Assembly (NCBI GenBank): GCA_003649205.1
Contig: QMRC01000002.1
Location: 64,001-128,000 of the forward strand
From: Thermoprotei archaeon
GTDB taxonomy: Archaea > Thermoproteota > Thermoprotei > Thermoproteales > B15-G16
Length of the DNA stretch: 64,000 nucleotides
Reading direction: 5' to 3'
Positions 18,295 through 41,915 of this stretch are shown piece after piece. Each line of letters starts with the position of its first letter. Positions within the stretch are counted from its first letter, which is position 1. Under the pieces are notes generated by a model. The model was not told the DNA's origin, did not search any database, and saw only the letters and a program-made list of their open reading frames with translations. A program made the translations under genes and the position numbers.

Positions 18295-18846
18295 ATGTCA
18301 GAGCTAATTCAGGAAACAATACGTACACCCAAGGTGATTTAGGAGAAGATCAAGCAGCTAAATATCGACCTAGATACCCTAGTAATAGAGCTACTAATCA
18401 AAGAGCTGAACATCAGCTCTAGAGAGGAGATACAGATACATCTACAACTTGCTCAAAAACACTTTGAGGAAGCAAAGAAGTACCTAACTGAAAATAATCT
18501 AGTTCAAGCTAGTGAGAAGCTGTATAAGTGTGCCGAGGAGTGTATTAAGGCACTAGCTATGAAGTACAGAGTACCTGAGGTTGAGGAATATCGTAGAGAA
18601 GGTAGGTAGTGGACGAAGCTCCTCTCAAGAGCAGCTAAGAGATTGGCAGCTACACTAAGTAGTGAAATCATATGTATTGCATGGTCTATAGCATACGTCC
18701 TACATGTATGGGGATTTCACGAAGCATCACTAGAGGTATGTCATGTGAGTAGCTGTGTTAAGTACATTGAGCAACTACTCAAGGGAAACAATGAGGAGAG
18801 TAGAGGTACACAATACACAGTGATTTCACTTAGTAACAAGGTATAG
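18295..18846 (+). pseudogene. PaREP1 family (HEPN-like) pseudogene
   Basis: One frame from ATG 18295 contains QASEKLYKCAEECIKALA and LHVWGFHEA, but has TAG stops at 18340 and 18607 (the latter at the conserved W of GRW). Confidence 0.85.
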
Positions 18847-18925
18847 GTGACTAGAGGTGAGTTAGTGGTAAGGTAAGTGAAGATTTTAAGCTGAAGAACC
18901 ACTGTATATGTAGGTCTAGGGAGTT

Positions 18926-19051
18926 ATGAAGCTTGGAAGAATTAGAGGTAGAATAGGACACATATACCCAATTAGAAGGAGAGTAGGACACATATACCCG
19001 CTATCTAAGGTGAGGAAACTCCATGGCAGTGAGGGTAAGGCTCAGGATTAG
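18926..19051 (+). CDS. Small Arg/Gly-rich peptide (41 aa) overlapping the start of a retropepsin-like gene
   Basis: MKLGRIRGRIGHIYPIRRRVGHIYPLSKVRKLHGSEGKAQD*. GGGAG RBS and a TTTTAAG TATA-like element upstream; an analogous uORF lies at 36740. Confidence 0.55.
   Translation: MKLGRIRGRIGHIYPIRRRVGHIYPLSKVRKLHGSEGKAQD
18941..19000 (+). repeat. Two 30-bp direct repeats encoding IRxRxGHIYP
   Basis: attagaggtagaataggacacatataccca / attagaaggagagtaggacacatatacccg. Confidence 0.9.
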
Positions 19052-19448
19052 ATGTCTTAAGTCGGGTAGAGAGGTAGTGACATCAGCTCTCGTCAACTCA
19101 GGTTTTGAAGCGGAAACACCACAACTACTCATACCGCGTAGATTAGCAACAGAGCTCAACCTCTGGCCACCACCAGAAGAAGCAGTACTAATCGAAGTAG
19201 GTACAGCAGGAGGACCAGTACGAAACTACCTCATACCAAATGTAGCAGAGGTCTACGTAGAGACCCAAGATAGAACCGTAGGACCAGTGAAGTGTGACAT
19301 CATGATCTCTAGCTATGAGTACGAAGTACTCATAAGCGATAAGCTAGGAGGTGAGTTAGGGATCGTAATCCTAGATCTTAGAGGGAAGTGGAGGTTCAGT
19401 GATGAGGATAAGGTAAGAGAGACAGAACCACCACAGTACTGGTTCTAG
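19023..19448 (+). CDS. Retropepsin-like (clan AA fold) protein with Asn in place of the catalytic Asp
   Basis: SALVNSGFE (canonical ALxDTGF), VGTAGG flap and EVLISD. Confidence 0.75.
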   Translation: MAVRVRLRIRCLKSGREVVTSALVNSGFEAETPQLLIPRRLATELNLWPPPEEAVLIEVGTAGGPVRNYLIPNVAEVYVETQDRTVGPVKCDIMISSYEYEVLISDKLGGELGIVILDLRGKWRFSDEDKVRETEPPQYWF

Positions 19449-19568: not shown

Positions 19569-20315
19569 ATGGGTAAGCTACGAGAGTACATGGAGCAGTG
19601 GTTCAAGGAGGCAAAACACGATCTAGAACTCGCTAAGAGATTTCGAAATGAACAACTACACCACGTAGCATGCTTCTTCGCACAGCAAGCAGCTGAGAAA
19701 GCACTAAAGGCACTGTACTACATCTGTCGTAGACCACACCCTCGAACACATGACCTAGAGAAGCTGTACCTAGAGCTACCACAGGAAGTACAGTCCATAC
19801 AGCACGACTTCACCATAAAAGACCTAAGAACACTAACAGACTACTACGAGAAATCAAGGTACCCAGACGCCATCAGAGGACTACCCTCCGAGAAGATAGA
19901 TAGAGAGGATGCAGACCTAACCATAGAAATAGCTGAGAAAGTAATTTCCTGGGTCGAGAAAATCATAGCAACACACCCCATTGAAGATCCTGATCCACAA
20001 GCCATAGACATAGCTAGAGAAGTAGTTCGAAAACTCAAGACAAAAATCACAGTAACAGAAGCATACGTCTTCGGAAGTAGAGTACGAGGAGACTGGAACA
20101 CCTACAGCGACCTAGACATAGTCATAGTATCACCAAACTTCAAAAACCTCAAACCACTAGAAAGACTAAAACTCACACTAAACATCCTAGAAAACCTCAA
20201 CACACCATACAGAGTAAACCTCTTCCTCTACACACCAGAAGAATTCAAAGAAGCACTCAATGGCGCATCACCAGCAATAGTAGATGCCTCAAAGTACTGG
20301 ATAAGAATAGACTAG
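19569..20315 (+). CDS. HEPN-MNT fusion protein
   Basis: N-half ACFFAQQAAEKALKA..THDL..SRYPD; C-half VFGSRVRGDWNTYSDLDIV. Confidence 0.9.
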   Translation: MGKLREYMEQWFKEAKHDLELAKRFRNEQLHHVACFFAQQAAEKALKALYYICRRPHPRTHDLEKLYLELPQEVQSIQHDFTIKDLRTLTDYYEKSRYPDAIRGLPSEKIDREDADLTIEIAEKVISWVEKIIATHPIEDPDPQAIDIAREVVRKLKTKITVTEAYVFGSRVRGDWNTYSDLDIVIVSPNFKNLKPLERLKLTLNILENLNTPYRVNLFLYTPEEFKEALNGASPAIVDASKYWIRID

Positions 20316-20390
20316 AGCACAAACCTAAAGTAATTATAGGATAGTGGTAGACTCAACACCGACACGAATTCCTGCAGACACAACTCAGCA

Positions 20391-20789
20391 CTAAGAACTA
20401 TGATTAAACATCTGCTTGACTAAGTGAACTACCTTCTCCGCAATAGATAGGAACCTCCTTGCAGTACCCTCAGCAATCTCTCTCCAAGGCTTCCTCAATC
20501 CAGCATTAGGATACCTAGCAATCACGTAGTAAGGAGATAGCTCTGTCAACAACTCAACATCACTAACCTCTAGCTCTAAACCAGCTACATGAAGTAGCTC
20601 CAAGAGGTCATGACTTCTAGGAGGTCTAACTCTTTTAAATCCAATAATGTAAGCTTTCAAAGCCTTTTCTACAGCTTGATGTGAGAGGAATACAGCAAGA
20701 TGGTAGCTACCACGCTTAAAAGCTTCTTTAGCCTCATTGAGATCAACTAGAGCACCCTCTAACCAATCTAGAGCCTCCTCTCTAATCAT
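20391..20789 (-). CDS. HEPN domain protein
   Basis: SHQAVEKALKA, RSHDL and ARYPNA. Confidence 0.92.
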   Translation of the reverse strand: MIREEALDWLEGALVDLNEAKEAFKRGSYHLAVFLSHQAVEKALKAYIIGFKRVRPPRSHDLLELLHVAGLELEVSDVELLTELSPYYVIARYPNAGLRKPWREIAEGTARRFLSIAEKVVHLVKQMFNHSS

Positions 20790-20803
20790 AACTACAACCC
20801 AAA

Positions 20804-21130
20804 TTAAGCAATTCTGATCCAGTACTCCATAGCATCCCTAACGACAATACTCCTCCTCTTAACCTCCTCAAACTCCTCAGGAGTATAGGCCAAGATATCA
20901 AATCCCCTATTAGGTGGCAAAAACTTCCTCAAGATAGCATACCTCTTACCAAAATCCAATCCCCTAAACCTAGGAGAAACAACAATTAAATCAACATCAC
21001 TATCAACTAACCAATCACCACGAGCAAAACTACCAAAGAGATAAACCTCAACATCACCGAGAACTTCCTTAACCTTCCTCACAAAATCCCTCAACATCTT
21101 CAGAACATCTTCAGGAACATTACCGTACAA
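20804..21130 (-). CDS. Minimal nucleotidyltransferase (MNT)
   Basis: YLFGSFARGDWLVDSDVDL and YTPEEF. Confidence 0.92.
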   Translation of the reverse strand: MYGNVPEDVLKMLRDFVRKVKEVLGDVEVYLFGSFARGDWLVDSDVDLIVVSPRFRGLDFGKRYAILRKFLPPNRGFDILAYTPEEFEEVKRRSIVVRDAMEYWIRIA

Positions 21131-21246
21131 GAACTCAACACCTCAATACCACAACCGAGCTAGAAACTAAAATCACTAACTCCACAGATACACCATAGTG
21201 GAAAAGTTTTTGTCTCTACATCAGTACAGCAATCATGTGAAATCCA

Positions 21247-21659
21247 TGGAACGAATTGAAGAAGCTAGAAGGTGGTTCCTCCAAACTTCAAGAGATATCA
21301 AAGCAGCTAGTGACAGCCTCCACGCTGCAAACTTCGAGTGGTCATGCTTTCAGGCACAACAAGCTGCAGAGAAAGCTGTTAAAGCACTACTGTACGCTCA
21401 CGGTAGACATGCCTGGGGACACAGCATAGTTGAGCTACTCAACATCTTGAAGGAATTAGAGGAGGTACCTGAAGAACTCTACGTAGCTGCACGCGAACTA
21501 GATAGACACTACATACCCTCACAATACCCAAATGCATTTGAATCTGGATACCCAGGTATGTACTACGATAAACCGACAGCAGATAGAGCACTTGAAGCTG
21601 CTAGGAAGATCATGGAGTGGGTGAAGGAATGCTTGAGAAAACTTGGTGTAAACGTGTAG
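21247..21659 (+). CDS. HEPN domain protein
   Basis: WSCFQAQQAAEKAVKA, GHS and LDRHYIPSQYP (the usual R of RYP is Q here). Start taken at ATG 21247. Confidence 0.9.
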
Positions 21660-22033
21660 AGGAGCTCATTAGTAAGCTCAGCAAGGTATTTGGCATCGAA
21701 GCAGTCATAGTATTTGGATCATGGGCACGTAGTGGAGGAGGTGAGTGGAGCGATCTCGATGTACTCGTAGTAACGGATGATGTCAAGAACATAGACATAC
21801 TCGAACGATTTAGAATAGCTACCGAATACAAGCCACCACGAGTAGACGTGTTCCTGTACACATATGGAGAACTCGAGAACATGATGAAGAGAGGAAATCC
21901 ACTAGCACTATCAGCACTCGTAGAGGGGATACCACTAAAAGCAAGTAGCAGAGTCCTAAAGCTCATGGAAGTAGCCAAGCAAAGGTACATAAGGAGAGGA
22001 CGAGTTTGGATCGAGACAACAAAACTACAGTAA
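21617..22033 (+). CDS. Minimal nucleotidyltransferase (MNT)
   Basis: VFGSWARSGGGEWSDLDVL; overlaps the HEPN gene. Confidence 0.9.
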   Translation: MGEGMLEKTWCKRVEELISKLSKVFGIEAVIVFGSWARSGGGEWSDLDVLVVTDDVKNIDILERFRIATEYKPPRVDVFLYTYGELENMMKRGNPLALSALVEGIPLKASSRVLKLMEVAKQRYIRRGRVWIETTKLQ

Positions 22034-22263
22034 CCTCACGCATTAGATTGCAGAAGATAGCGAAGGTCCTAGAGAGCAAACAGCACTAGAAAAAGCCACA
22101 CAGAAATCAACCCAAGATACAGTAATCACAGAGTCAAACACAAAACACCTTAGAACTTACTTGTCAAGTCCTCACATAAGTCTCTTAAACCTCTCATCAA
22201 CCTAACTAACCTAGAATAGAACCCTTATAACTCATTCATGAAGGGAGGAATACAGGTGAGGTA

Positions 22264-22872
22264 ATGTACAAGGTAATTGTAGCCACACTAGCATCACAAG
22301 CACCACTCACAGCAATAGCAGTAGTAACACTCTACTACCTACTAAGTCGAAGAATAGATAAGCTGGAACTGAGACTAACCAAGTTAGAAGTAAGAATAGA
22401 TAATCTTGAAGTAAGAATGTCAAACCTAGAACAGGAAATGAAGAGAGGATTCGGTAACCTAGCTAGCTTCAACGATACACTAATTACACTACTACAGACG
22501 AAGACAGTAATAACTGAAGGAGAAGCACTAGTACTGAAGAACTACCTAAGAACAATAACACCAGGAACAAGCACAAAGTACTACACAGAAGAAGTAAGGA
22601 AGAGACTACTGGAGCTACTAGATAAGAAATTAAGTGAGTACACCTGGGAAGACGTATTCGAACTAGAGGAAATAGCTGAACTAATCAATGAAGAAGCTAG
22701 AGTAACAGGAAGAATGGACCTAGCAGACTACTACGGAAGACTAAGAGCATACATAGCAATAATTAGAGGAGATCTCATAAGAAGACACGTAATGCCACCA
22801 GAGAAACCACCAGAGAAGAAATGGTTAAAGAAAATACAGCAACAACCTACACACCAAACACACAACCCCTAG
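22264..22872 (+). CDS. Membrane-anchored coiled-coil hypothetical protein
   Basis: N-terminal TM, then heptads RIDKLELRLTKLEVRIDNLEVRMSNLE and a helical C-domain; GGTGAGG RBS. Confidence 0.75.
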   Translation: MYKVIVATLASQAPLTAIAVVTLYYLLSRRIDKLELRLTKLEVRIDNLEVRMSNLEQEMKRGFGNLASFNDTLITLLQTKTVITEGEALVLKNYLRTITPGTSTKYYTEEVRKRLLELLDKKLSEYTWEDVFELEEIAELINEEARVTGRMDLADYYGRLRAYIAIIRGDLIRRHVMPPEKPPEKKWLKKIQQQPTHQTHNP

Positions 22873-22892
22873 ACCTCACAACCAATACAGCA

Positions 22893-23267
22893 CTATAACT
22901 CCCTCAACTCCTTCAAAAGCTTCAGAAGATCAATACCACACCTCTCAATCTCAACCACAATAGGATTCCTCTTAACCCTCATCCTCTCAAATTCACTCAA
23001 CGTAACAACAATAGGCTCAACACGAGGACACATCAGTAAACAACCCTCAATAAGCTCAAGACGCTTAACAGGACTCCTAGGTAAATCACCATCAACAACA
23101 ATTAACACATCAACATCACTCCACTCATTAAAATCACCACGAGCAAAACTACCGAAAAGCCAAGCACCAACAACACTAAACCGCTTAGAGACACACCTAA
23201 CAAACCTCAAAGCCTCCCTTAAAGCCTCTTCACGTCTCCTCAACCTCTCCTCAAGAACCTTCCCCAT
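22893..23267 (-). CDS. Minimal nucleotidyltransferase (MNT)
   Basis: WLFGSFARGDFNEWSDVDVL. Confidence 0.92.
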   Translation of the reverse strand: MGKVLEERLRRREEALREALRFVRCVSKRFSVVGAWLFGSFARGDFNEWSDVDVLIVVDGDLPRSPVKRLELIEGCLLMCPRVEPIVVTLSEFERMRVKRNPIVVEIERCGIDLLKLLKELREL

Positions 23268-23656
23268 ACACCCTCAACCCAAGATAGAATACACTCCGCA
23301 AGCTTAATAGCTTCCTCAGCATCCTCCCTCACATAGTAATCCTCAGGAACACCTTCACACCACACATCAGGGTACCTAGTAGGAGTATAGAACCTATCCA
23401 ACCTCCTACACGCACGCAAAACCTCTTCAGGAACCTCCACACCCAGCTCACTAATGTACTCAAGCAACCTACTCAATGCACGACCAAAACGAGGACGACC
23501 AACACCCCACAACAAAGCCTTCAAAGCCTTCTCAGCAGCTTGATGAGCCTTAAAACAAGCCCAATTAAAATCACCACACAAAGCATCACGCCTAGCGGAA
23601 TCGAGCGTAAGCCTAGCACTCCTAAACCACCTCTCAAACTCAACAGAATCAAGCAT
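23240..23656 (-). CDS. HEPN domain protein
   Basis: WACFKAHQAAEKALKA and YTPTRYPD; the conserved GHxL is altered to GRAL. Start at MLDSVE. Confidence 0.9.
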   Translation of the reverse strand: MLDSVEFERWFRSARLTLDSARRDALCGDFNWACFKAHQAAEKALKALLWGVGRPRFGRALSRLLEYISELGVEVPEEVLRACRRLDRFYTPTRYPDVWCEGVPEDYYVREDAEEAIKLAECILSWVEGVWGRFLRRG

Positions 23657-23695
23657 AGAGACACCAGCAAGCAGCACTAGCTGAGGAGAGTAAAG

Positions 23696-24430
23696 CTACA
23701 CCTCCAGAACCTCTCCACGACACTCAATACCTAACTTATCAGCAAGCTCCTTAGCCCTCTTCCTAATTCCAGGAGACACAATCAACATCTTCGGCTTAAC
23801 CCCAGTAACCCTCTCATAGAGCACACCTACCCTATACAGCTCAGCTACATCAGCTCTATCAACACTAGCCTTATACTCAACAAGAACGTGCTCACCATCT
23901 CTAATCAACAAATCAACCTCAATCCAAGACGGATAACCAAACACAACACCCTCACTATCGTAGTAAACCCACCTCTCAACCCTATACACCTTAAGCAAAT
24001 CCTCAACGAGGTACTTAATAGACTCCCTAAAAGCACCCTCTGTAGAGAGACCATACTTAAGACCAAGAGCTTGAATACTCGCTACCAACCTCTCAAGAAC
24101 TCTCATATGCTCCTCAAGCACTCTACTATGCTTAAGAGCTTGCTCCTGTAAGCTCCTAACCTGCTCCTGCAGTACCTTCATCTGCTCCTGTAAATTCCTA
24201 ACTTGCTCCTGTAAACTCCTAATGACCTCACTGTGTTTAGCTACTTGTTTTTGTAGGTCTCTAACCTGCTTCTGTAGGTCTCTAACTTGTTCCTGTAGAG
24301 ACTTAATAGCTTCAGTATTCTTGTCAATTCTCTTAAGCACCTCTTCAATACCTAGTAAACCCACTACAGCATACCTAAACTCAACATCCTCACGAAGCAA
24401 CCTAAGAAACTCCTCCCTCAACCCCGACAT
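23696..24430 (-). CDS. Coiled-coil repeat + PD-(D/E)XK nuclease-like protein (DUF3782-like)
   Basis: LLREDVEFRYAVVGLLG, QEQVRxL heptads and IEVDLLIRDGEHVLVEYK. Confidence 0.82.
   Translation of the reverse strand: MSGLREEFLRLLREDVEFRYAVVGLLGIEEVLKRIDKNTEAIKSLQEQVRDLQKQVRDLQKQVAKHSEVIRSLQEQVRNLQEQMKVLQEQVRSLQEQALKHSRVLEEHMRVLERLVASIQALGLKYGLSTEGAFRESIKYLVEDLLKVYRVERWVYYDSEGVVFGYPSWIEVDLLIRDGEHVLVEYKASVDRADVAELYRVGVLYERVTGVKPKMLIVSPGIRKRAKELADKLGIECRGEVLEV
24138..24305 (-). repeat. Degenerate 21-bp coding repeats (LQEQVRx heptads)
   Basis: Recurring ttgctcctgta / ttgtaggtctctaac units at 21-bp period; boundaries are approximate. Confidence 0.75.
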
Positions 24431-24663
24431 AGCACATACACCCTAGTGAACCCACAACAGAGAAACCACCTACACTCCCTCAAGCAAACTCCATCACTTA
24501 AAGTCAATCCAAAAAGCTACACTCCAGTAAATAAGCTTTCATTTACTCATCAAGAACCAGGTAGAGAAGCTAAGCAAAACAGCATTAACGTACACACAAA
24601 AAACAAACACCCACCACTACCCTTAATACACCCCAAATACCCACAACCACTGAGGTCGATTGA

Positions 24664-25062
24664 GTGCCCATTAGAGATGAAGTCCTAAATTGGCTCACCG
24701 AATCCAAAGCAGATCTCCAACATGCAGAATCCAGCCTACAAATTGGCGACTACAACTGGGCCTGCTTCGCTGCACAGCAAGCAGCTGAGAAAGCACTAAA
24801 AGCACTGATAATGCACACCCTGGGTGAGTACCCTCGTGGACACGACCTCATTAAACTCTACAGAAAGGTAAAGAACTACACAGACCTCAAACTCAACGAA
24901 AGTGCACTAGCTAGATTATCAGCATACTACACACTAGCAAGATACCCAAATGCAGGTCTCGAAAAACCATCAGAAGAAATCACCAGAGAACAAGCAGAAG
25001 AAGCCATAGCAATCGCCAGAGGTGTAGTCGATGAGATCACAAAAACTATCAGAGATCCGTAG
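24664..25062 (+). CDS. HEPN domain protein
   Basis: WACFAAQQAAEKALKA, RGHDL and ARYPNA. Confidence 0.92.
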   Translation: MPIRDEVLNWLTESKADLQHAESSLQIGDYNWACFAAQQAAEKALKALIMHTLGEYPRGHDLIKLYRKVKNYTDLKLNESALARLSAYYTLARYPNAGLEKPSEEITREQAEEAIAIARGVVDEITKTIRDP

Positions 25063-25369
25063 AGAAGTAATCAACACACTAAGAAAACTCGCACAGGAAC
25101 TAAACGCAACAATCTACCTCTTCGGAAGCTACGCACGTGGAGATCACATGCTAGATAGCGACGTAGACATAGTAATTGTATCAAAAACCTTCGAAGGCAT
25201 GAACTACGTAAGTAGAGTCGAACTAGTTAGAACAAAACTACCACCACACATAAGCTTCGACATAATCCCACTAACACCACAGGAATTCAAAGAGAGAAGA
25301 GAGAAACCATTCTTCAAAGAAATATCTAGGTACTGGATCGAAATAAAACCACAACACCCTCAAGCCTAA
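25031..25369 (+). CDS. Minimal nucleotidyltransferase (MNT)
   Basis: YLFGSYARGDHMLDSDVDI. Confidence 0.92.
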   Translation: MRSQKLSEIRREVINTLRKLAQELNATIYLFGSYARGDHMLDSDVDIVIVSKTFEGMNYVSRVELVRTKLPPHISFDIIPLTPQEFKERREKPFFKEISRYWIEIKPQHPQA

Positions 25370-29098: not shown

Positions 29099-29518
29099 TT
29101 GAGCGGAGAAAGAGTCAACATAATCAAGGATAGAGCCTACGCATTCCTAAACCTAGCTAAAGAATTAATCGATAAAAGACCTGACATAGCATCCTTCAAC
29201 ATCCACCAAGCATGCCAACTCAGAATCAAAGCAACACTACTTAGATTCACAGGTGAAATACCTAGAATCCACAGCATTAGAGAACTCCTAGGAATACTCG
29301 CAAAGAAGCTAGAAGACCTCAACTACAGAGAAGACGCCCTAAAAATCATCAACTTCATAAGAAAACAGAGAGAAGCACTCATTGACATAGAAGCAGCATA
29401 CACCGAGTCAAGATACGGAATAGGAATCACCACTAGAAGCATGATAGAGGAAATGCTGAAAACAGCCGAAGAACTATTTAAGCTCCTAGACGAAGTCGAA
29501 AAACATGTACTGGGCTAA
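29099..29518 (+). CDS. HEPN domain protein
   Basis: FNIHQACQLRIKA, PRIHSIRELL and YTESRYG. Confidence 0.88.
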   Translation: MSGERVNIIKDRAYAFLNLAKELIDKRPDIASFNIHQACQLRIKATLLRFTGEIPRIHSIRELLGILAKKLEDLNYREDALKIINFIRKQREALIDIEAAYTESRYGIGITTRSMIEEMLKTAEELFKLLDEVEKHVLG

Positions 29519-29852
29519 ATACCACCTACAACACCTCAAAAAATGGAGAGAAGCAGCTGAAGCTATAGCAAAAGCAGTAAAAGACCTACACATCAAAGCA
29601 GAAGTATACGTCATTGGAGGGGCAGCAGAAGATAGATTAACAGTACTAAGCGACATAGACATACTCCTATGCCTAGAAGAGAAACCAAAAATCGAAGACG
29701 TATGGATATTGAGGAGGAAAGTACTAGAGATAGCTATGGACAAGTACGGACTACCCATAGACTACCCCATAGAACTCCACATACAGGACAAGAAAACCTG
29801 TAACCAAACACTACAACACAGAAAAGCCATAAAGATCAACACATCAACCTAA
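29505..29852 (+). CDS. Minimal nucleotidyltransferase (MNT)
   Basis: VYVIGGAAEDRLTVLSDIDIL and PIELH. Confidence 0.88.
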   Translation: MYWAKYHLQHLKKWREAAEAIAKAVKDLHIKAEVYVIGGAAEDRLTVLSDIDILLCLEEKPKIEDVWILRRKVLEIAMDKYGLPIDYPIELHIQDKKTCNQTLQHRKAIKINTST

Positions 29853-29902
29853 CACACATACAAAAACACCAAGAGAACACAAAGTAACTAGGTGAAACCA
29901 AC

Positions 29903-30061
29903 ATGAATGAAGAGAGCAACAACTCCAACACAATAACCGTAAAACTCCCCAGCATCCTCGCGAAGAAACTCAGAGATGTAAAAGAAGCAAAAGCAACGAA
30001 AAAGTACATAGAAGAAAGAATTCACGACATAGAAAAGCTAGTGGAACTAGCGACAAATTAA
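29903..30061 (+). pseudogene. Internally deleted PaREP1 (52 aa)
   Basis: MNEESNNSNTITVKLPSILAKKLRDV joined in frame to EAKATKKYIEERIHDIEKLVELA; these match the two ends of 37322..37834. Confidence 0.85.
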
Positions 30062-30408
30062 GACTCAGTAAAAAGGCTATAGTTTTTGAAACGATTGAGC
30101 AAGACTAGGTACTGGAGAAGGACAATCACACCCTAACTACCCAAAGAATAGATACCTATGGACGAGAGAAGTGATTAGATAAAGGTACACAAATAACCCT
30201 ATACCCGGAATATCAGGTGAGTCCCGTGAGTGGAGAGAAGGTGCCTAAGTTCAACATATGAAGTCTACTTTATCGAGAAGGAAGAAGCATAACCTATGAA
30301 GCACAACAATAGAACTAACAGGTCTCATACCAGAATACGAGTACAGGTAAACTTAGCACACCTCCCAAACCCACAAAGATTAAGAACTAGAACTTCAAGG
30401 ATATCGTC

Positions 30409-30918
30409 ATGAACGTTGAAATTACTATAAAATTACCTGAAGTAATTGCTAAACACATCAAGAATCTAGGTATCGACATAGAATCTAAGATCATCGACAT
30501 GATCATTCAAGAACTTAACCTGGATCCTGAAGAAGAAGTTAAAGCTCACGTAGAGCTTGCAGTAAAGTTCCTAGAAGATGGAAGAAAGCTCATCAATAGG
30601 GATCCAGCTCAAGCTAGTGAAAAGCTGTATAAAGCTGCTGAAGAGTGTGTAAAAGCATTAACAATACAATTCAAGCTAGAGAACATCATGAGGAAAATCA
30701 GAGAAAGAGGTAGGTGGACCGTTACAGAACTTGAGAAAGCTGCTGAGATCATAAGCGACAGGATTGGTTCATGGTTCTACGATGCTTGGGATCACGCATG
30801 GACCCTACACGTATGGGGATTCCACGAAGCAAAACTAGATAGCGAAGCCGTGAAGAGAAGACTACCATACATAGAAAAGATAGTGGAAGAAACAAAGAAG
30901 ATAATTAGAGGTCTTTAG
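30409..30918 (+). CDS. PaREP1 family protein with N-terminal RHH-like segment
   Basis: QASEKLYKAAEECVKAL, GRW and AWTLHVWGFHEA. Confidence 0.92.
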   Translation: MNVEITIKLPEVIAKHIKNLGIDIESKIIDMIIQELNLDPEEEVKAHVELAVKFLEDGRKLINRDPAQASEKLYKAAEECVKALTIQFKLENIMRKIRERGRWTVTELEKAAEIISDRIGSWFYDAWDHAWTLHVWGFHEAKLDSEAVKRRLPYIEKIVEETKKIIRGL

Positions 30919-30954
30919 GAGAGATCACGAAGCTTACTAAAGGCACAAAGCTGC

Positions 30955-31190
30955 AATGCCACTCATGAAAGAAATCCCCAACAAAGCAAGACACATCTAC
31001 ACAATACACCTCTTCGAAAGTTTTCCTAAAGGTATGGCATACCTGAAAGTGATGTAGATACCCCAGTAGTATACTCAATCGAGAACGAGAACCTACATAG
31101 CAACCCAGCAGATACCTCTAGTAAGGTATATAGAGAGCCAGGTGAAGCCATTGAGTACACAACAATGAGCATTAACCTGTGAATTAATAC
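30955..31190 (+). pseudogene. MNT remnant
   Basis: Fragments IYTIHLFESFPKG and PESDVD lie in different frames. Confidence 0.4.
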
Positions 31191-31345
31191 CCACAGGCAC
31201 ATCTACCGAATAAAGATAGAGCGCCATCAGCTACTATATGAACTCAATCCACAGGGAAAACACCAATAACCAATACAAACTACACTAACCACAAAGAAAG
31301 TTCTTAACGTCACAGCCCCCTACTAGAAGTAGGTAGTAGACCTGT

Positions 31346-32254
31346 ATGAGAATCTTAACTAGAGATCACGTAGTTCAGAAACTCCGTGAAGTACTCTCTA
31401 AGAGGAAAGAAGTTAAGCTAGCTTACCTCATAGGCTCCATCGCAGAGAGAGGATTTAGCTACCACGACGTAGATGTAGCAATCCTACTCGACTGCAACCC
31501 CAACGACAAACTCAAACTCCTAGGAGAAATACACAACGACATATGTAAAGCACTCTCCATAAGCGACGACCGTGTAGACATAATACCCATAGACGAAGTA
31601 GACTGGCACTTCAAATACAGAATCGTCAAAGGAATCAAACTAGTAGACAGAGATGACGCTAGCCTACAACTCATTAAAGAACTCAACAACATCTACCCAG
31701 AACTACGACTACTACTTAACCTCAACCTCAGAGAGTGGATGAGGATGAACGACCCAAGAAGCATAGACTGGACCATAGTTAAGAAACGCATGGACTACGC
31801 CTTCAAAGCCACAGAAATCCTCAACGAAATCCTAACCAAACCCCTCGAAGAAATAACATCATCAACAATACTCAAACTAGCATTCGAACGCCTAGTACAC
31901 ACAATAGTTGAATCAATTCTAGACACTGCACGACACATAGTATCAGTAAAAGGATGGGGGCCAGCTGAAACGTATCGAGACTACATCGAAATACTTCACA
32001 AACAAGGAATAATCTCACCCGAACTAGCCCAAGAACTCTACAAATTCATTACCTGGAGAAACATACTGGTACACAGATACATCGAAATAAACTACTCAAA
32101 ACTATACGAAGACTCAAAGAAACTAACTACCATTGTAAGAGAGTTCGAAAAACAAATAATCAAGCTCAAGGAAAAGCACGAAGAAACCAAACACAACAAA
32201 CCACAACAACAGCCACATAACCCCCAAGAGATTTCACAAAGCAAAAAGTACTGA
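31346..32254 (+). CDS. MNT-HepT(DUF86) fusion, intact
   Basis: YLIGSIAERGFSYHDVDVA, then ESILDTARHIV...WRNILVHRY (RX4HxY). Confidence 0.9.
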   Translation: MRILTRDHVVQKLREVLSKRKEVKLAYLIGSIAERGFSYHDVDVAILLDCNPNDKLKLLGEIHNDICKALSISDDRVDIIPIDEVDWHFKYRIVKGIKLVDRDDASLQLIKELNNIYPELRLLLNLNLREWMRMNDPRSIDWTIVKKRMDYAFKATEILNEILTKPLEEITSSTILKLAFERLVHTIVESILDTARHIVSVKGWGPAETYRDYIEILHKQGIISPELAQELYKFITWRNILVHRYIEINYSKLYEDSKKLTTIVREFEKQIIKLKEKHEETKHNKPQQQPHNPQEISQSKKY

Positions 32255-32442: not shown

Positions 32443-33483
32443 ATTCACGAAATTAAGTTCATAAACAGGGTACCAGAACTCAAAGCCTTAAGGGATTGGT
32501 GCGCAAAACAGAGAACAACACCTCTCTACATCTACGGTCCTGAAGGCTGTGGAAAGACAAGACTACTGAGAGAATTCATCAAGAAATTCAATGAGTACTT
32601 CGGAGATGACGCAATTGCAGTATACATCGATGCACTAGAGAGAAGCTCAGTAGAGAAAGCCATACTAACGTCGAGATCCGTGAAACTAGCTACAGAAACC
32701 CTCGAGAAAATAATCGAGAAATTCTCCGGTCTAAGCGTTGGAAGAATTCTCGCTGAATCAATAACATCAATACTCGAAAAAGCAATCATAAAGAAGAAAC
32801 TCGAAGACAACTACATCCTCATAGCAATCGACGACATAACCAGAGCACTTGGCCTCCAACAAATTGAGTGGTACATCAAGTGGCTTTACGAACTCCTATG
32901 GAAGATCAGAGAAGAGTACAGACCAAAAGCCATAAACATAATAGTAACGACATCGGAAGGAACCAGCCTAAAATTAGTATCAAGACACAGACACGCACAC
33001 ATCACACTACTATGGAACCTACCCAAAGAAGCATTTAAAGAACTCTTCCACGAACTAAAACCACCAAACAACACAGAATTCGAACAAGTATGGAAACTAC
33101 TAGGAGGAAACCCAGGAAGACTAATTGAACTAGCTGAAGAATACAACTGGAACCTCGAAAAATGGCTCAATAACCTCATGAAGAGACTAAAACCACTCGC
33201 CGAAGAAATCGCTAGAAGAGGACTAATCAAAGAACTGAAACAACTAATCGAAGACCCCGACAACGTATGGTACAAAGCATCCCCCAAAATAGGTGAACTA
33301 TACGACCTCCTAGTAGAAAACAACGTATTCATGTACAAAGGATTCACAACACTAAACGAAACCGAAATACCCAAAGACCCAGAACTCGGAATCGGACAAG
33401 ACTACACATGGCAAATACCCGCATACAGATACATACTAGACAAACTACTCAAAAACAAAACAACAACCCCCACACAAACCTAA
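32443..33483 (+). CDS. Archaeal (STAND-like, ATPase_2-type) ATPase, copy 1, apparent ATT start
   Basis: The frame is open from 32422. KFINR, Walker A GPEGCGKT, Walker B IAIDDI, TTSEG and GGNPG are present. No ATG/GTG/TTG lies before Walker A. Confidence 0.85.
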   Translation: MHEIKFINRVPELKALRDWCAKQRTTPLYIYGPEGCGKTRLLREFIKKFNEYFGDDAIAVYIDALERSSVEKAILTSRSVKLATETLEKIIEKFSGLSVGRILAESITSILEKAIIKKKLEDNYILIAIDDITRALGLQQIEWYIKWLYELLWKIREEYRPKAINIIVTTSEGTSLKLVSRHRHAHITLLWNLPKEAFKELFHELKPPNNTEFEQVWKLLGGNPGRLIELAEEYNWNLEKWLNNLMKRLKPLAEEIARRGLIKELKQLIEDPDNVWYKASPKIGELYDLLVENNVFMYKGFTTLNETEIPKDPELGIGQDYTWQIPAYRYILDKLLKNKTTTPTQT

Positions 33484-33598
33484 AAGAAGACATAACCCTA
33501 GACCTCAACCAAACGAAAAATCCTCAGCAAGAAACAAGACCTAAAAAGTACCATAGCTACTACCTACCAAAACAGAGAAGACAACTCAGGGGAACAAA

Positions 33599-34588
33599 GT
33601 GATAGAGCTAAAGTTCGTAAATAGAGAAGAAGAATTAAAGACATTACATGAATTAGCAAATAAAGGAACAACACTACCAATCTACCTCTATGGACCAGAA
33701 GGTTGTGGAAAGACAAGACTACTAAAGGAATTCATAAAGAAAGTCAATGGGGTAGCCCTGTACATAGACGCACTTGAGGGTGAAGACCCAGAGAAGGCAC
33801 TACTCACAACACCACTAAACATACTCACCGACATAGTGAAAGATTTGATTAAAGAAGTAGCAAAACCTGTAGGACAATACCTATGCCTAAGTCTATGGAA
33901 AATACTCAAACACATAGAAACCAAACTACAGATAAGAGGTAAACCCCTAATCATAGCTGTAGACGACATCACAAGAGCAATAGGTCTAAGTAAAGTCGAG
34001 TGGTACACAAAGTGGCTATACGAACTAATTAAGAAACTACAGGAAGACTATCGACCAAGTTCCATTTTAATCATAGCAACAACAAGCGAAGGCAAGAGCC
34101 TAGACCTAGTAATGAGACACACATACACACACATCAACCTAGTATGGAACCTAGACAAAGAAGCCCACCAAGAACTAATACAACAACTAAAACCACCAAA
34201 AAACATAGACCCAGAACAACTCTGGTACTACACAGGAGGAAACCCAAGAGCAACAATCGACATAGCAGAAAACAACTGGAACATAGATAGCTGGATCCAG
34301 AAAATAGAGGCAAAACTAAGACCACTCATCAGAACCATAAGAAGCCTAAACCTAACCAATGAACTACAGAAACTAATCGAAGATCCAGACAACATAGAAA
34401 AACAACCATCACAAAAAATGGAACAACTCTACACAATACTCGTAGAAGCAAACCTATTCATGTACAAAGGATTCAGAACAATAAACGGAAAACACATACC
34501 TAAAAACCCAGAACTAGGAATAGGAGAGTACTACGCATGGCAGATACCAGCATATAAGCACGCACTAGAGCAACTACTACAGAGATAA
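33599..34588 (+). CDS. Archaeal STAND-like ATPase, copy 2
   Basis: KFVNRE, GPEGCGKT, IAVDDI, TTSEG, GGNPR and WQIPAY. Confidence 0.92.
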   Translation: MIELKFVNREEELKTLHELANKGTTLPIYLYGPEGCGKTRLLKEFIKKVNGVALYIDALEGEDPEKALLTTPLNILTDIVKDLIKEVAKPVGQYLCLSLWKILKHIETKLQIRGKPLIIAVDDITRAIGLSKVEWYTKWLYELIKKLQEDYRPSSILIIATTSEGKSLDLVMRHTYTHINLVWNLDKEAHQELIQQLKPPKNIDPEQLWYYTGGNPRATIDIAENNWNIDSWIQKIEAKLRPLIRTIRSLNLTNELQKLIEDPDNIEKQPSQKMEQLYTILVEANLFMYKGFRTINGKHIPKNPELGIGEYYAWQIPAYKHALEQLLQR

Positions 34589-34685
34589 CAGTAGAATTCA
34601 CTACCTATGTAGCGGATAAAACCAATCATAAGGCTTCACACACCTAGAATCATCCACCCCACCATTAATCCTCCCAGGAACAATC

Positions 34686-34845
34686 AACGAATCATTCCAA
34701 GACCCTCAACCACAACCACATTAAGATAAACATCATTCAACTTCAGCAAATAGTACACAGCACCCATCTCATCAACGTAAACTTCACTAGGACCACCCAA
34801 AACTCTCTCAAGAACACGAACAAACCCCCTCAAAAATTCTCAACA
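34686..34845 (-). pseudogene. Small toxin-like (RelE/DUF4258-like) remnant
   Basis: Fragment VLERVLGGPSEVYVDEMGAVYYLLKLNDVYLNVVVV. Confidence 0.3.
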
Positions 34846-35047
34846 CCTAACACACTTAAAACATCCCTATGCCTCTTTACCACATGTAAATAAAGCCTAT
34901 GAGAAATCACTACATTACACCACCAACAAGAAACCTCAGAACACAACACCCAACAACCAAAGACAACACATATCCAAAAAGAGTTAAGTCTAAGCCAGGA
35001 AAAGAAACCAGAAAGAGGAAACTAAGTTACAAAATGAGGCTTAAGAC

Positions 35048-36070
35048 ATGAGTACAGAACCCAAGTTCGTCGACAGAGAATACGAACTAAAGACCCTGGA
35101 AGAACTATCGAGAAGAGACCTACCAACACCACTCTACATCTACGGTCCTGAAGGCTGCGGAAAGACAAGACTACTGAGAGAATTCATAACAAACTTCAAC
35201 GGAATAGGAATCTACATAGACACACTAGAGAGAACCAACATAGAGAAAGTACTAACAGTAAACCTAGCAATACCAGAGCTAAGAGAGTACATAGTGTCAA
35301 TAGCCAAGGAATACCTCGGAAACATAGGACTAATCCTCGCACAAAAACTATACACAGTACTAGAGAAAATAGCCACAAAATACAAACTAAAAGGCAAAAA
35401 CCTCGTAATAGCTGTCGACGACGTAACACAAGTACTCGGAATACACGAAATAGAACGCTACATGAAATGGCTCTACGAAGCAATAACCAAGATAAAACAA
35501 GAATACAGACCAGAATCAATACTCATACTAGTAACAACATCAGAAGGACAAAGCCTACAAAGAATAATAAGACACACCTACACCAAAGTAAACCTACTAT
35601 GGAACCTACCAAAAGAAGCCTTCACACAACTAGCAAATCAACTACAACCACCAGATAGAGACACAGTAGAGAAAACCTGGGAACTAACAGGAGGAAACCC
35701 AAGAAGACTAATCGAAATAGCTAAATGGTACAGATGGAACATAGACCAATGGCTAGAAGACCTAAAAGAAAACATAAGAGACGTAGCTAAAACAGCAATA
35801 AAACTCAACCTAGTAGAAGAACTAATCAAAGTAATCGAAAACCCAGACAACATAGATGTAGTAACAACAGAGAAAATGGAAAGACTCTACAAAATCCTAC
35901 TCGAAAGAAACCTAGTAATCTACACAGGAATACCACTACTACAATCATGGACAACAAAACAAAGACACCTAACACCCAACACCAAACTAGGAATAGGAAG
36001 ATACTACTCATGGCAAATACCAGCATACAAATACGCACTAAAACAACTACTACAGAAACAACACCACTAA
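35048..36070 (+). CDS. Archaeal STAND-like ATPase, copy 3
   Basis: KFVDRE, GPEGCGKT, IAVDDV, TTSEG, GGNPR and WQIPAY. Confidence 0.92.
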   Translation: MSTEPKFVDREYELKTLEELSRRDLPTPLYIYGPEGCGKTRLLREFITNFNGIGIYIDTLERTNIEKVLTVNLAIPELREYIVSIAKEYLGNIGLILAQKLYTVLEKIATKYKLKGKNLVIAVDDVTQVLGIHEIERYMKWLYEAITKIKQEYRPESILILVTTSEGQSLQRIIRHTYTKVNLLWNLPKEAFTQLANQLQPPDRDTVEKTWELTGGNPRRLIEIAKWYRWNIDQWLEDLKENIRDVAKTAIKLNLVEELIKVIENPDNIDVVTTEKMERLYKILLERNLVIYTGIPLLQSWTTKQRHLTPNTKLGIGRYYSWQIPAYKYALKQLLQKQHH

Positions 36071-36739: not shown

Positions 36740-36871
36740 ATGAGGAGATTCATAGGGTTGATCAGAGATCACAGGACTAAGATTGGAAGGATCGTTGCTA
36801 AGAGAGTGAGTGTGCGTAGCTATGGTCGTGAGAGTGAGGATAAGGATAGAGAGGAGCGGAAAGGTTGTTGA
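36740..36871 (+). CDS. Small Arg-rich peptide (43 aa) overlapping the start of the second retropepsin-like gene
   Basis: MRRFIGLIRDHRTKIGRIVAKRVSVRSYGRESEDKDREERKGC*; GGGGT RBS; same layout as 18926. Confidence 0.5.
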   Translation: MRRFIGLIRDHRTKIGRIVAKRVSVRSYGRESEDKDREERKGC

Positions 36872-37247
36872 AACTAGCGCCCTAGCAAATAGCAGTTACG
36901 AAGCTGAAACACCACAGCTACTGATACCCATTCGCCTTGCTGAAACCTTGGGCCTGTGGCCTCCTACAAAGGAGCTTACGGAGACCGTGTATGAGACTGC
37001 TGGTGCCCCACTCAGAGTATGGATAGCTCCAAGAGCGTGTAGAGTCAGGGTCATAGCTGAAGATACTGAGTCCCCCGATGTCATAGCCGATGCAGTGATC
37101 TCACCGATAGCAGACGAGGTTCTCAGCGATAAGCTCATCAGCAAGCTTCAGATAGCGTTAGAAGATGTAGAAGAAGGACTATGGAGATTCCGATGGGAAC
37201 CAAGAGACAAGCTGAGACGCAGCGAACCACCCAAGCTCTGGAAATAG
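36822..37247 (+). CDS. Retropepsin-like protein with Asn at the catalytic position, paralog of 19023
   Basis: MVVRVRIRI..SALANSSYEAETPQLLIP..ETAGAP..WRF. Confidence 0.75.
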   Translation: MVVRVRIRIERSGKVVETSALANSSYEAETPQLLIPIRLAETLGLWPPTKELTETVYETAGAPLRVWIAPRACRVRVIAEDTESPDVIADAVISPIADEVLSDKLISKLQIALEDVEEGLWRFRWEPRDKLRRSEPPKLWK

Positions 37248-37321: not shown

Positions 37322-37834
37322 ATGAGTGAGGAGAACTCTAGCTTCAATACAGTAACTCTAAAACTCCCTAGTATCATCATGGAGAAACTCAAGGATGTAG
37401 GAGTTGACGTAGAATCGCTAATAATTGATTTAATTGTAGACAATCTAAACCTTAAACCAGAGGAGGAACTTGAAGTTCATAGGGAACTAGCTAGAAGGTT
37501 CCTAGAGGAAGGTATGAAGCTCATCGATGTAAATCCTGTACAAGCAAGTGAGAAGCTATACAAAGCAGCTGAGGAAGCTGTGAAGACACTTGTACTCAAA
37601 CACAGGCTACGCAGCATAGTGGAAAGAGTTGAGAAACGTGGTAGGTGGAAAGTAGAAGACCTCTTCGACGCTATTAGTGAGTTGAGACAGATCTACAGCG
37701 ATGACATTAGGAGGTGGTGGGACTCTGCATGGAATCTCCATGTATGGGGATTCCATGAGGCGAAGGCTACGAAGAGGTACGTGGAAGAAAGGATCCGTGA
37801 TGTAGAGGAGCTGGTAAAGCTAGCTATAGAATGA
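37322..37834 (+). CDS. PaREP1 family protein
   Basis: QASEKLYKAAEEAVK, GRW and AWNLHVWGFHEA. Confidence 0.92.
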   Translation: MSEENSSFNTVTLKLPSIIMEKLKDVGVDVESLIIDLIVDNLNLKPEEELEVHRELARRFLEEGMKLIDVNPVQASEKLYKAAEEAVKTLVLKHRLRSIVERVEKRGRWKVEDLFDAISELRQIYSDDIRRWWDSAWNLHVWGFHEAKATKRYVEERIRDVEELVKLAIE

Positions 37835-37975
37835 GGCTCAGCAGTACATATGCATAGTCTACAGAAGATGGTGATGAGATGCGAAGCTCTATCAATACAT
37901 GACTTTAGCGCTGATATAGCGCCATAGATAAGTTTGATGAGGTGCAACCAAGTCATAGATACGGGTGTGAGCTTG

Positions 37976-38506
37976 ATGGAAGCCATCTACGTCCCTAAGA
38001 AGCTTGTTGATGAAGCTAGGAAGATGGGTATCGACATAAGCGAACTCGTACTGAATGCTATCGCTAACGTGCTTGATTTAGATCCAAGTGAAGTTGCTTC
38101 TGCTAGGCTTGAGCTTGCTGAGAAATCTCTTGAAGAAGCTAGAGAGTTCATCAAGCAGAGAAATGCTGTTCAAGCGAGCGAGAAGCTGTACAAAGCCGTT
38201 GAGGAGTGCATCAAGGCATTAGCAGAGGTATTCAACGCTTCACAACTCAAAGAAGTTAGAAAGAGAGGAAAGTGGGATACATGGCTTCTCGGTATGGCTG
38301 CAACCGATCTCTCGAAAAGGCTCGGCGAAGAAAGGATTAGGTTAGCATGGAAAGACGCGTACGACATACATGTATGGGGTTTCCACGAAGCGAAGTACAG
38401 AGTAGAGGATGTGGAAGCAGCACTCCCACTAGCAGAGTGGTTGCTCAGCTACACGAAGCAAGTAATAAGTGAGAAGCTTAGAGAACATAAAGAGAAGCAA
38501 GAGTAG
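37976..38506 (+). CDS. PaREP1 family protein
   Basis: QASEKLYKAVEECIKAL, GKW and IHVWGFHEA. Start at ATG 37976 after GGTGTGAG. Confidence 0.92.
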   Translation: MEAIYVPKKLVDEARKMGIDISELVLNAIANVLDLDPSEVASARLELAEKSLEEAREFIKQRNAVQASEKLYKAVEECIKALAEVFNASQLKEVRKRGKWDTWLLGMAATDLSKRLGEERIRLAWKDAYDIHVWGFHEAKYRVEDVEAALPLAEWLLSYTKQVISEKLREHKEKQE

Positions 38507-39927: not shown

Positions 39928-40170
39928 ATGTTTGAGAAGAGCGTTACTATCAATGGCTTTAAGAGCATACGGGAAGGTAAGCTAGATGAATTTACAGAAA
40001 TAAACATCTTCGTATGTAGAAACAATACGGAGGAAGTCTACTGTACTCGAAGCTCCAACCCCCAAATAACCGCAGGAATACTACACCCCCATAAATCCAT
40101 AAATCCAGAAGAGGCAAAACTAGTACTAAGTCTGGAATCCAGGCACAGGAGGAGAGGGGCTAACCCATGA
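39928..40170 (+). pseudogene. SMC/ABC-like (AAA_15-type) ATPase N-terminal remnant
   Basis: VTINGFKSIREGKLDEFTEINIFVCRNNT is a degenerate form of I.NFKSI....INxFVGxNNxGKS. Confidence 0.55.
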
Positions 40171-40679
40171 GCACCAGTATAAGCATCCCCCTAAAACTCT
40201 ACGAGAGGCTGAAAAAGGAGGGGGTAGACATCGAAGCACTGGTAGTCGACCTACTAGTGGAGAGGTTAAACCTAAACCCAGACGAGGCCACTCAAATACG
40301 CCTAGAGCTAGCCGAGAAGTACCTCAAAGAAGGAGTAAAGCTAGTAGATAAGGACCCAGTACAAGCCAGCGAGAAGCTATACAAGGCAGCTGAGGAATGC
40401 ATTAAAGCCGCAGCCACACACCTCAACCTCAAGGACATACTAGCGAGGGTAAGGAGAAGAGGGAGATGGGTACTAGCAGACCTAGAGAAGGCAGCCCGAG
40501 CAGCAGGCAAGAAAATCAGCGAAGACATATACATAGGCTGGGACCGAGCAAACTACCTACACGTCTGGGGCTTCCACGAAGCAAAATTAGACGCCGAAGA
40601 CGTGAAAGCAAGAATCCCATACATAGAGAAAATGGTAGAGAAACTGAAAGAAGAACTAGGGAAGAGAGAACATAAGTAG
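40167..40679 (+). CDS. PaREP1 family protein
   Basis: QASEKLYKAAEECIKA, GRW and LHVWGFHEA. Confidence 0.92.
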   Translation: MSTSISIPLKLYERLKKEGVDIEALVVDLLVERLNLNPDEATQIRLELAEKYLKEGVKLVDKDPVQASEKLYKAAEECIKAAATHLNLKDILARVRRRGRWVLADLEKAARAAGKKISEDIYIGWDRANYLHVWGFHEAKLDAEDVKARIPYIEKMVEKLKEELGKREHK

Positions 40680-40814
40680 AAGGTAAAGGTAAAAGACAGC
40701 ATATACCTAGCATACCGGTGAACACATGAAGACCACTAATCACCTTACAGTAAGCCCCCCACAAGCCCACGACAGTTATAGGACCAATAACCGATGAACT
40801 ATAACCTACCCAGA

Positions 40815-41220
40815 TTCAAGGTAGCAACACAGCTCCTGAAGAGCACTAGAGCTAATCCCCCTCCTCGACCTCAGCTACAGCAACGAAGAGCTAACCATAA
40901 AGATAACCCAAATCGTAGACACCCATGAGATCTACAGAGCCAACATAGATGACAAGACCCTGAGGATAGCTAACGCCAAGGACGTCAAAGTCTTCAAAGC
41001 AGACCTCTCCAGAGACCCCACACCGCTACCCAACAAGAGCATAGATACTGCTACAGCGCTAAAGGTCATTGAGCACCTACTAAACCCCCGACCATATGCT
41101 CAAGGAAACACATAGGATTCACAAGAAAAGAGATTACCTCCCTATAACAACACCAAACTCAACAAGCTGGATAAACAGAACAACACTACTACTTGACTAT
41201 TAACCATATAATGCTGAACA
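40815..41220 (+). pseudogene. Class I SAM methyltransferase remnant
   Basis: Fragments LLDLSYSN, KVIEHLLNP, DHMLKETHR and ITTPN..SWINR..LL resemble 53966..54685. Confidence 0.6.
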
Positions 41221-41437
41221 CACCCCCTACTCAACCTTAGTCACACTAACAGTGACCCAACTTCAAAATGATGCACCAGGCACACCAGCATTAGGAATAG
41301 CACTACTAGCCCTAAAACAATATAGGACATAGATCACTCAACAACTATACCTCATAGTAGCAAGCTAAAGGAACCTATGGACAAGAGAGTTAGTGTGATC
41401 AAAAACAAAGATAAGCTAGGTCTAGAGGATACACCTA

Positions 41438-41910: not shown

Positions 41911-41915
41911 ACAAA

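Follow-up and report, generated by a model that had tools for sequence, protein, structure and literature searches.

A conserved archaeal gene pair: a short repeat-peptide gene overlapping a retropepsin-fold gene with Asn at the catalytic position

Comparison with described systems

In the precursors of retroviral proteases, such as HIV-1 p6*/TFP, an upstream-encoded transframe or flanking peptide occupies the dimer's own cleft. The stretch of archaeal DNA analyzed here (64,000 nucleotides, hereafter the window) contains two gene pairs that recall this arrangement. In each pair, a small gene for a basic peptide overlaps the start of a gene for a retropepsin-fold protein, which we refer to as the main gene and main protein. 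The likeness lies in a retropepsin dimer with its own upstream peptide, encoded in the other reading frame and here modeled in the cleft. The pairs differ from p6*/TFP in that the peptide has a cistron and a stop to itself and is not a frameshift product, in that the protein naturally carries Asn and nothing is predicted to be cleaved, and in their location on an archaeal chromosome with no flanking retroelement genes.

The clan AA DTGF/DTGA proteases (TIGR03698; Asp_protease_2, PF13650) share the fold and length class of the main family. When the main family was compared by hhalign with a canonical set of ten DTG(F/A) proteins from related genomes, the profiles aligned at 96.7% probability (E 3.3e-10) with the psi-loop motif in register, and by this profile comparison the main protein and the clan AA DTG family are remotely related. 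The main family is set apart by Asn at the catalytic position in 121 of 123 members, by a C-terminal extension of ∼25 residues that ends in PxxW, and by the upstream peptide gene; the in-frame upstream residues of 12 canonical DTG loci (that frame only) contain no such peptide. None of the main-family members scanned reaches the family cut-off. For TIGR03698 this cut-off is 57.35 bits; neither window copy matches at E ≤ 10, and a few paralogs in the genome scan score 20–31 bits (e.g., C7:14656, E 5.8e-6). Asp_protease_2 is touched by just 2 of the 123 members, at E ∼0.005. Whether used as a single sequence or as a profile, the main protein has no usable match in Pfam, NCBIfam, or PDB sequences.

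Type II toxin-antitoxin systems provide a different comparison. Like them, the module is a pair of neighboring genes in one orientation whose ORFs overlap or are coupled, and a small disordered upstream partner is modeled in the cleft of the globular downstream partner. Many diverged paralogs with matched specificities are found per genome, in multi-copy and patchy sets that include decayed copies and occupy varied contexts, and in the window the module sits among HEPN/MNT pairs. Unlike type II systems, the module has no known toxin fold or activity, its upstream partner, only 30–55 aa long, lacks a DNA-binding domain, and either gene can occur as an orphan. No profile for a known toxin, antitoxin, or defense component in PADLOC, Pfam, or NCBIfam matches the module, and the main protein has no match in PADLOC or PHROG. 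Small archaeal retropepsin-domain proteins in a defense context have been described as the Saci_1895 type, which are ∼100 aa long and adjoin type III CRISPR loci in Sulfolobales (PMC3973734). The part of that paper concerned with these proteins presents them as Cas-associated and mentions no partner peptide, whereas the loci described here have no conserved cas neighbors.

A literature search on the family and the peptide (retropepsin-like proteins in archaea, toxin-antitoxin, pseudoprotease, GHIYP) found no paper, and none of the profile libraries searched (Pfam, NCBIfam, PADLOC, PHROGs) describes the module. Matches of the peptide to Pfam SH3_7 (E 0.053) and to a PHROG (E 0.045) were set aside as noise.

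A coding peptide gene overlapping the main gene

All features of the two window pairs lie on the + strand. Copy 1 opens with the TATA-like hexamer TTTTAA at 18883–18888, the likely promoter of a bicistronic transcript. The small gene follows at 18926–19051, with GGGAG preceding its ATG, and encodes a basic 41-aa peptide, MKLGRIRGRIGHIYPIRRRVGHIYPLSKVRKLHGSEGKAQD, which contains tandem [RK]-[IVL]-G-[HR]-I-x motifs (KLGRIR, RIGHIYP, and RVGHIYP). Two direct 30-nt repeats, at 18940–18969 (encoding IRGRIGHIYP) and 18970–18999 (encoding IRRRVGHIYP, the stretch modeled in the cleft), are identical at 27 of 30 positions (90%), and their 16-mer core occurs exactly twice within the 64-kb window. Inside the peptide ORF, before the main ATG, is the Shine-Dalgarno (SD)-like element GGTGAGG for the main ORF (19009–19015), within which lies the main-frame stop (TGA, 19011–19013). 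The main gene, at 19023–19448, overlaps the peptide ORF by 29 nt and encodes a 141-aa retropepsin-fold protein with the motif ALVNSGFE, in which Asn25 replaces the catalytic Asp. An earlier note on this DNA had pointed to the unlisted ORF with its own ribosome-binding site and TATA-like element, its two repeats, its overlap with an NSG retropepsin-fold gene, and a recurrence of the layout about 18 kb away; each of these can be read in the DNA. The recurrence, copy 2, is 17.8 kb downstream (36740–37247). Its small gene (36740–36871) encodes a 43-aa basic peptide with FIGLI and KIGRIV motifs and overlaps the main start in the −1 frame, and its main gene (36822–37247; ALANSSYE) encodes a product 48% identical to that of copy 1. 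In both copies the frame of the small ORF is one base behind that of the main ORF. The copy 2 peptide is also kept by the ortholog in a related genome (L117).

The earlier note had also proposed a search for conserved [RK]x[IV]Gx[IV] peptides upstream of homologs, and such peptides were found among both orthologs and paralogs. We collected 34 orthologous loci from other genomes, with titles that include Desulfurococcales, Thermofilaceae, Sulfolobales, Bathyarchaeia, and Ignisphaera, among others. A 17-codon core, RIGHIYPxRRRxGHIYP, is present in 29 of 33 analyzable orthologous sequences (window included), and the ORF is open with a start codon in 32 of 32 ortholog loci. Residues R9, G11, H12, R18, R19, G21, H22, and Y24 are invariant in the peptide alignment. 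Across the 29 loci with the core, entropy at the three codon positions is 0.26, 0.08, and 1.29, so that variation falls almost only on third positions, and it includes AGA/CGT and AGG/CGG changes between arginine codons. Differing codon pairs are synonymous or nonsynonymous at 3230:766 in the peptide frame, as compared with 264:3572 and 246:3607 in the other frames. This pattern of third-position variation in the peptide frame implies purifying selection on a protein and excludes a purely DNA- or RNA-level repeat; on codon-level evidence, the 41-aa ORF is a protein-coding gene under purifying selection. In the protein sets searched, the peptide gene is present only within rare fused calls.

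The paralogs within the source genome have diverged in sequence and keep the pattern. At least 10 of 16 of their upstream regions contain a twice-repeated [RK]-[IVLF]-G-[RHK]-[IVF] in the −1 frame, for example, RVGHIY twice, KVGRIV twice, RFGKF twice, or KLGRLIP with RFGRFIP. The repeat spacing, where measured (30, 30, 33, 33, 33, 51, 54, and 33 nt), is always a multiple of three, and the third base of the Gly codon varies. Of 33 loci, 18 have a TATA-like hexamer 60–69 nt ahead of the first motif codon, and no other 10-nt bin holds more than 6; so placed, it makes the small ORF the leading cistron of the transcript.

Close relatives differ in how many RIGHIYPLRR units they have: L038 has three full ones and L036 two, and one-unit forms of the peptide are seen in L043, L045, and L097. 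This variation suggests expansion and contraction by slippage.

The overlapping layout recurs far beyond chance. Among 32 analyzable ortholog loci (L028 and L030 were left out of the count, their main genes themselves being frameshifted), the peptide ORF is in the −1 frame in 31 and in frame with an intervening stop in one (L032), and none is fused or in the +1 frame. In the metagenomes, 54 of 68 loci are analyzable, the main N-terminus being absent from the other 14, and 47 of these are in the −1 frame (46 overlapping), three are fused, two are in frame with a stop, and two are in the +1 frame with a TAGTG stop-start overlap; the genome and metagenome samples overlap, some contigs being the same records (e.g., L054 and L014). 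At least 10 of the 16 own-genome paralogs show this layout, as do 18 of 24 family members of related genomes. At 33 loci the main start codon is GTG (18), ATG (9), TTG (3), CTG (2), or TTA (1), and every Val at this position is encoded by GTG, as a start codon should be. In 24 of 32 ortholog loci an SD-like element is found no more than 18 nt before the main start; translated in the peptide frame, it gives the Leu-Gly-Asp that recurs in the peptide linker. The linker between peptide and main protein varies in length by whole codons, and in some lineages (L032, L050, L096, and L100) a stop falls exactly at the junction. On these gene structures, peptide and main ORF are separate cistrons in nearly all loci.

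The Asn25 retropepsin fold and its predicted peptide ligand

AlphaFold2, supplied with a 123-row alignment, models the main protein at a pLDDT of 97.4. A Foldseek search of the PDB with this model returned 219 matches at E ≤ 0.001, and the best 50 of the 219 are all retroviral proteases. The best matches are to HIV-1 protease (E 1.9e-5, probability 1.00, target-normalized TM-score 0.66–0.73), the top 50 span 0.61–0.73 in this TM-score, and inactive D25N-substrate complexes are among the best structural matches. The main protein is thus predicted to have the retropepsin β-barrel fold. In the hhalign alignment, Asn25 falls on the invariant Asp of the canonical DTG relatives. Position 25 is Asn in 121 of the 123 family members, Arg in one, and Ser in one; with Asp in none of the 123, the clan AA catalytic motif (hydrophobic-hydrophobic-D-T/S-G) is absent from the family. 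Other positions are also conserved among the 123 members, namely, Arg4, Gly27, Glu29 (109), Glu101 (115), and Asp106 (121). By these counts, the family is a conserved Asn variant rather than a decaying enzyme. The earlier note had held that many archaeal clan AA proteases begin with MGH(V/I) and that the main protein lacks this N-terminal strand. The first statement applies to 4 of the 12 canonical relatives that were read. The second does not stand, because the main-protein segment VRVRLRI aligns column for column with the canonical strand VYVDIEL and is modeled as a strand at residues 4–11; the missing part is only the Gly-His dipeptide.

A complex was predicted from two copies of the main protein and one peptide, each with its own alignment. 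The score was 0.74 (runs at 0.71, 0.74, and 0.77), as compared with 0.24 for the best control. In the calibration of the tool, the score mark is reached by 116 of 157 solved complexes and by 2 of 215 mismatched pairs, with alignments that differ from those supplied here. The runs share at least 78% of contacts, with a partner pLDDT of at least 50. In the 2:1 model, which would correspond to a homodimer with a single cleft under two flaps, both main-protein copies touch one peptide segment: residues 16–27 (IRRRVGHIYPLS) contact main residues 23, 25, 27–31, 36, and 57–62 of both copies. Val20 and Ile23 are placed in equivalent pockets of the two subunits, Gly21-His22 lies between both Asn25 residues, and the interface consists of the cleft and flaps, with residues 2, 139, and 141 at its edge. 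The second repeat therefore probably occupies the substrate cleft of the modeled dimer, in contact with Asn25 and the flaps. The pass may in part reflect model memory of the many solved retroviral protease-substrate complexes. The model places only one of the two or three repeats and leaves the tandem structure without explanation.

Comparison across paralogs points in the same direction. Among paralogs and relatives, GHIY-type peptides pair with E[VLF]GTAP flaps, while GR[LI]Y, KVGRIV, RIGY, and other peptide types each occur with a different flap. Two members that lack Glu29 (replaced by Ile) and Glu101 (replaced by Thr or Gln) are accompanied by tandem-repeat peptides of acidic or hydrophobic character. 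The peptide motif and the residues of the pocket thus appear to change together across paralogs, a pattern confounded by shared ancestry. The model, in which an interface with the dimer is predicted as the earlier note had proposed to check, and this co-variation both fit that note's suggestion that the peptide is a ligand, pseudo-substrate, or inhibitor of a pseudo-protease.

Several subfamilies depart from the common pattern. In G000:C1:295651 (− strand) and the second gene of L117, NSGFE is replaced by NSGFIG or NTGFIG, and the peptides, LPPEVLEP with LPPELLGEP and DYLLTLLEPE with DYLLTLIDLE, are not basic. In three Thr25 variants (VTTGYE; L125, L126, and L134, from genomes G010, G008, and G004 of one genus), a peptide ORF is absent upstream in every frame. 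A single evolutionary event may underlie the acidic peptides, and likewise the Thr25 variants. L123, L124, L127, and L129, as well as L135 and L143, have a longer upstream ORF of ∼45–60 aa, with a single [KR]-I-G-Y-[ILM]-[RK]-V-K motif and an extra helical-looking segment; that of L143 is in the +1 rather than the −1 frame.

We favor, with a probability of roughly 55%, a self-contained two-cistron module in which a dead-retropepsin dimer binds its own peptide in the cleft and in which the pair plays a toxin-antitoxin-like role. One promoter would drive a short first gene and an overlapping second gene, each with its own start, the ribosome-binding site of the main gene lying inside the peptide ORF. 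The first gene would yield a basic, disordered peptide in which the unit [RK]-[IVL]-G-[HRK]-[IV]-x-(P) is repeated two or three times in tandem, and the second a retropepsin-fold protein with the family-wide Asn in place of the catalytic Asp. The main protein would form the usual retropepsin homodimer, and one repeat of the cognate peptide would lie extended in its cleft as a pseudo-substrate, with Gly-His between the two Asn25 residues, the flanking Val and Ile filling symmetric pockets, and basic residues facing the conserved Glu29 and Glu101. The main protein would then be a peptide receptor and not a protease, peptide and pocket would co-evolve in each paralog, and the pair would behave as a selfish or stress-island module with the peptide as its cleft-plugging partner. 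Naturally occurring fusions that bring peptide and domain into one frame are a further point in favor of this reading. A broader proposal, that such archaeal pairs make up a class of their own, new among addiction or stress modules of two genes, in which the dead-retropepsin dimer is a specific receptor for a co-encoded tandem-repeat micro-peptide bound as a pseudo-substrate and up to ∼20 pairs per genome are each insulated by co-evolving motif and pocket, is one we put forward only tentatively.

The pair adds a conserved gene of ∼30–55 codons, whose product is a concrete predicted ligand for a family of "hypothetical" proteins widespread in archaea. An Asn retropepsin fold with its own pseudo-substrate would be a natural counterpart of the D25N-substrate complexes used for HIV protease, and it bears on uses of the retropepsin fold before or outside retroelements. 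If the broader proposal holds, prokaryotes would have their first example of a retropepsin pseudo-enzyme whose dedicated ligand is genetically encoded, and the fold could be seen with a "flanking peptide in the cleft" in a pre-retroviral form. The pairs would also offer thermophile-derived peptide receptors with their matching ligands, compact and mutually orthogonal. Should the pair act in toxin-antitoxin or sensing, archaeal defense and stress islands would gain a new component.

Two alternatives retain the peptide as a translated product and assign it no role as a separate partner. In one, a programmed +1 frameshift or a fused allele would join the peptide to the main protein as an N-terminal pro-segment that folds into the cleft, much like the flanking region of retroviral protease precursors. 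The frame relation invites this reading, since the main frame is the peptide frame plus one in 31 of 32 and 47 of 54 loci despite the variation in the linker, and, as at the RF2 shift site, an SD-like element is close by on the upstream side. In-frame fusions also occur in several lineages, both as database proteins (P0010, P0016, P0040, P0081, P0167, P0218, P0227, and P0264) and as loci (L047, L048, and L065). However, a main-frame stop lies 2–12 codons before the main start in the ortholog loci, leaving a tiny window for a shift, and no conserved slippery sequence was found at their overlap, so that programmed frameshifting is unlikely. With no conserved shift site, an NTG start in 30 of 33 loci (all 18 Val being GTG), and the SD-like element in 24 of 32, the usual marks of a programmed +1 frameshift are lacking, and the junction stops of L032, L050, L096, and L100 also speak against a single protein. 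A single G, in a G-run within the SD-like element, separates L048 and L065 from split loci that are otherwise nearly identical, and both may be variants or products of misassembly; for L047 the alignment offers no such split counterpart, and its difference is not pinned to one base. Fusion is either tolerated or an assembly artifact and is not the rule. When a natural fused form was folded as a monomer, the N-terminal extension had a pLDDT of 44–59 and was uninformative. In the other alternative, which we also regard as improbable, the small ORF would be a cis-acting leader whose nascent peptide stalls the ribosome over the main ribosome-binding site, the free peptide having no role. Overlap with the main SD and start, strong conservation at the amino acid level, and motifs that end in proline are all in keeping with a leader, but paralogs within a single genome have different motifs, each matched to the pocket of the main protein encoded with it, although all would pass the same ribosome tunnel. 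A peptide that diverges in step with its own downstream protein is not expected of an arrest peptide acting on a shared ribosome. Some of the peptides are acidic, fused forms exist, and the complex model is specific relative to controls, each of which counts further against a leader.

The remaining two alternatives concern where the repeats act. The earlier note had suggested that the peptide supplies a missing N-terminal strand in trans, or, by extension, a β-strand of the dimer interface, and GH(I/V)(Y/W) does resemble the way in which 4 of the 12 canonical DTG relatives begin, (M/V)GHV(Y/W)V. As a lead only, the peptide may have descended from a duplicated 5′ end. The main protein keeps its own strand, in the hhalign columns and in the model (residues 4–11, pLDDT 97), and the model puts the peptide at the cleft and flaps, with the terminal residues 2, 139, and 141 only at the edge, and not in the N-terminal sheet; we consider donation of a strand very unlikely. 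Lastly, the repeats could act as DNA or RNA, for instance, as operator sites of an autoregulator, the open frame being incidental. They lie between the promoter and the main gene, and synonymous codons are often the same in both repeats of a locus, suggesting concerted evolution. The codon-position evidence leads us to reject this reading, which is strongly disfavored by variation concentrated at third positions, arginine codon swaps included, by repeat spacing that is always in frame, and by an ORF that is open with a start codon in all 32 loci.

Distribution and genomic surroundings

The source genome (G000, with the window at C2:64001–128000) has 20 matches to the main protein, several with stops, and the family is found in 15 of 21 related genomes at 1–20 matches each, many with internal stops. 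Overall, it comprises 461 clusters at 50% identity (E ≤ 0.001), mostly Thermoproteota by automatic labels and named only "hypothetical protein". Neighbor clustering of 34 loci gave no conserved flanking gene. A scan of viral contigs with a single main protein gave one marginal 18-residue match and no sign of viral carriage. Orphan peptide ORFs stand beside broken main genes (C1:139909 and C2:18953), and intact main genes without a peptide ORF are also present (C15:38857 and the Thr25 variants). With orphans of both kinds, neither partner looks strictly lethal alone. Around the module in the window are HEPN/nucleotidyltransferase pairs, PaREP1 paralogs, and archaeal ATPases. In genomic terms, this distribution and context is toxin-antitoxin-like module behavior, and from it we infer that a toxin-antitoxin-like cellular role is the favored one.

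The HEPN and nucleotidyltransferase (MNT) genes of the window form a dense run at 19569–25366 and 29099–32251. The run includes two fused forms, HEPN-NT at 19569–20315 and NT-HepT at 31346–32251, and pairs at 20391–21130, 21198–22030, 22896–23677, 24664–25366, and 29099–29849. Six PaREP1 paralogs and, in addition, a 67-aa C-terminal PaREP1 fragment directly upstream of the copy 1 promoter are located at 18643–18846, 30409–30915, 37322–38506, and 40167–42921; their 3′ ends have a stretch of ∼34 nt in common. Just upstream of copy 2 are three tandem archaeal ATPase_2 (PF01637) genes (32680–36070), the first of which is N-terminally short.

Elsewhere in the source genome, one paralog of the main gene is present at G000:C3:144978–145328 (−) and again at C3:146101–146451 (+), as inverted copies with identical translations ∼0.8 kb apart. 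At G000:C15:35607–35933 (−), a TIGR03698-like retropepsin gene of the canonical type has NTG for DTG, and it adjoins two members of the main family, C15:36908 and C15:38857.
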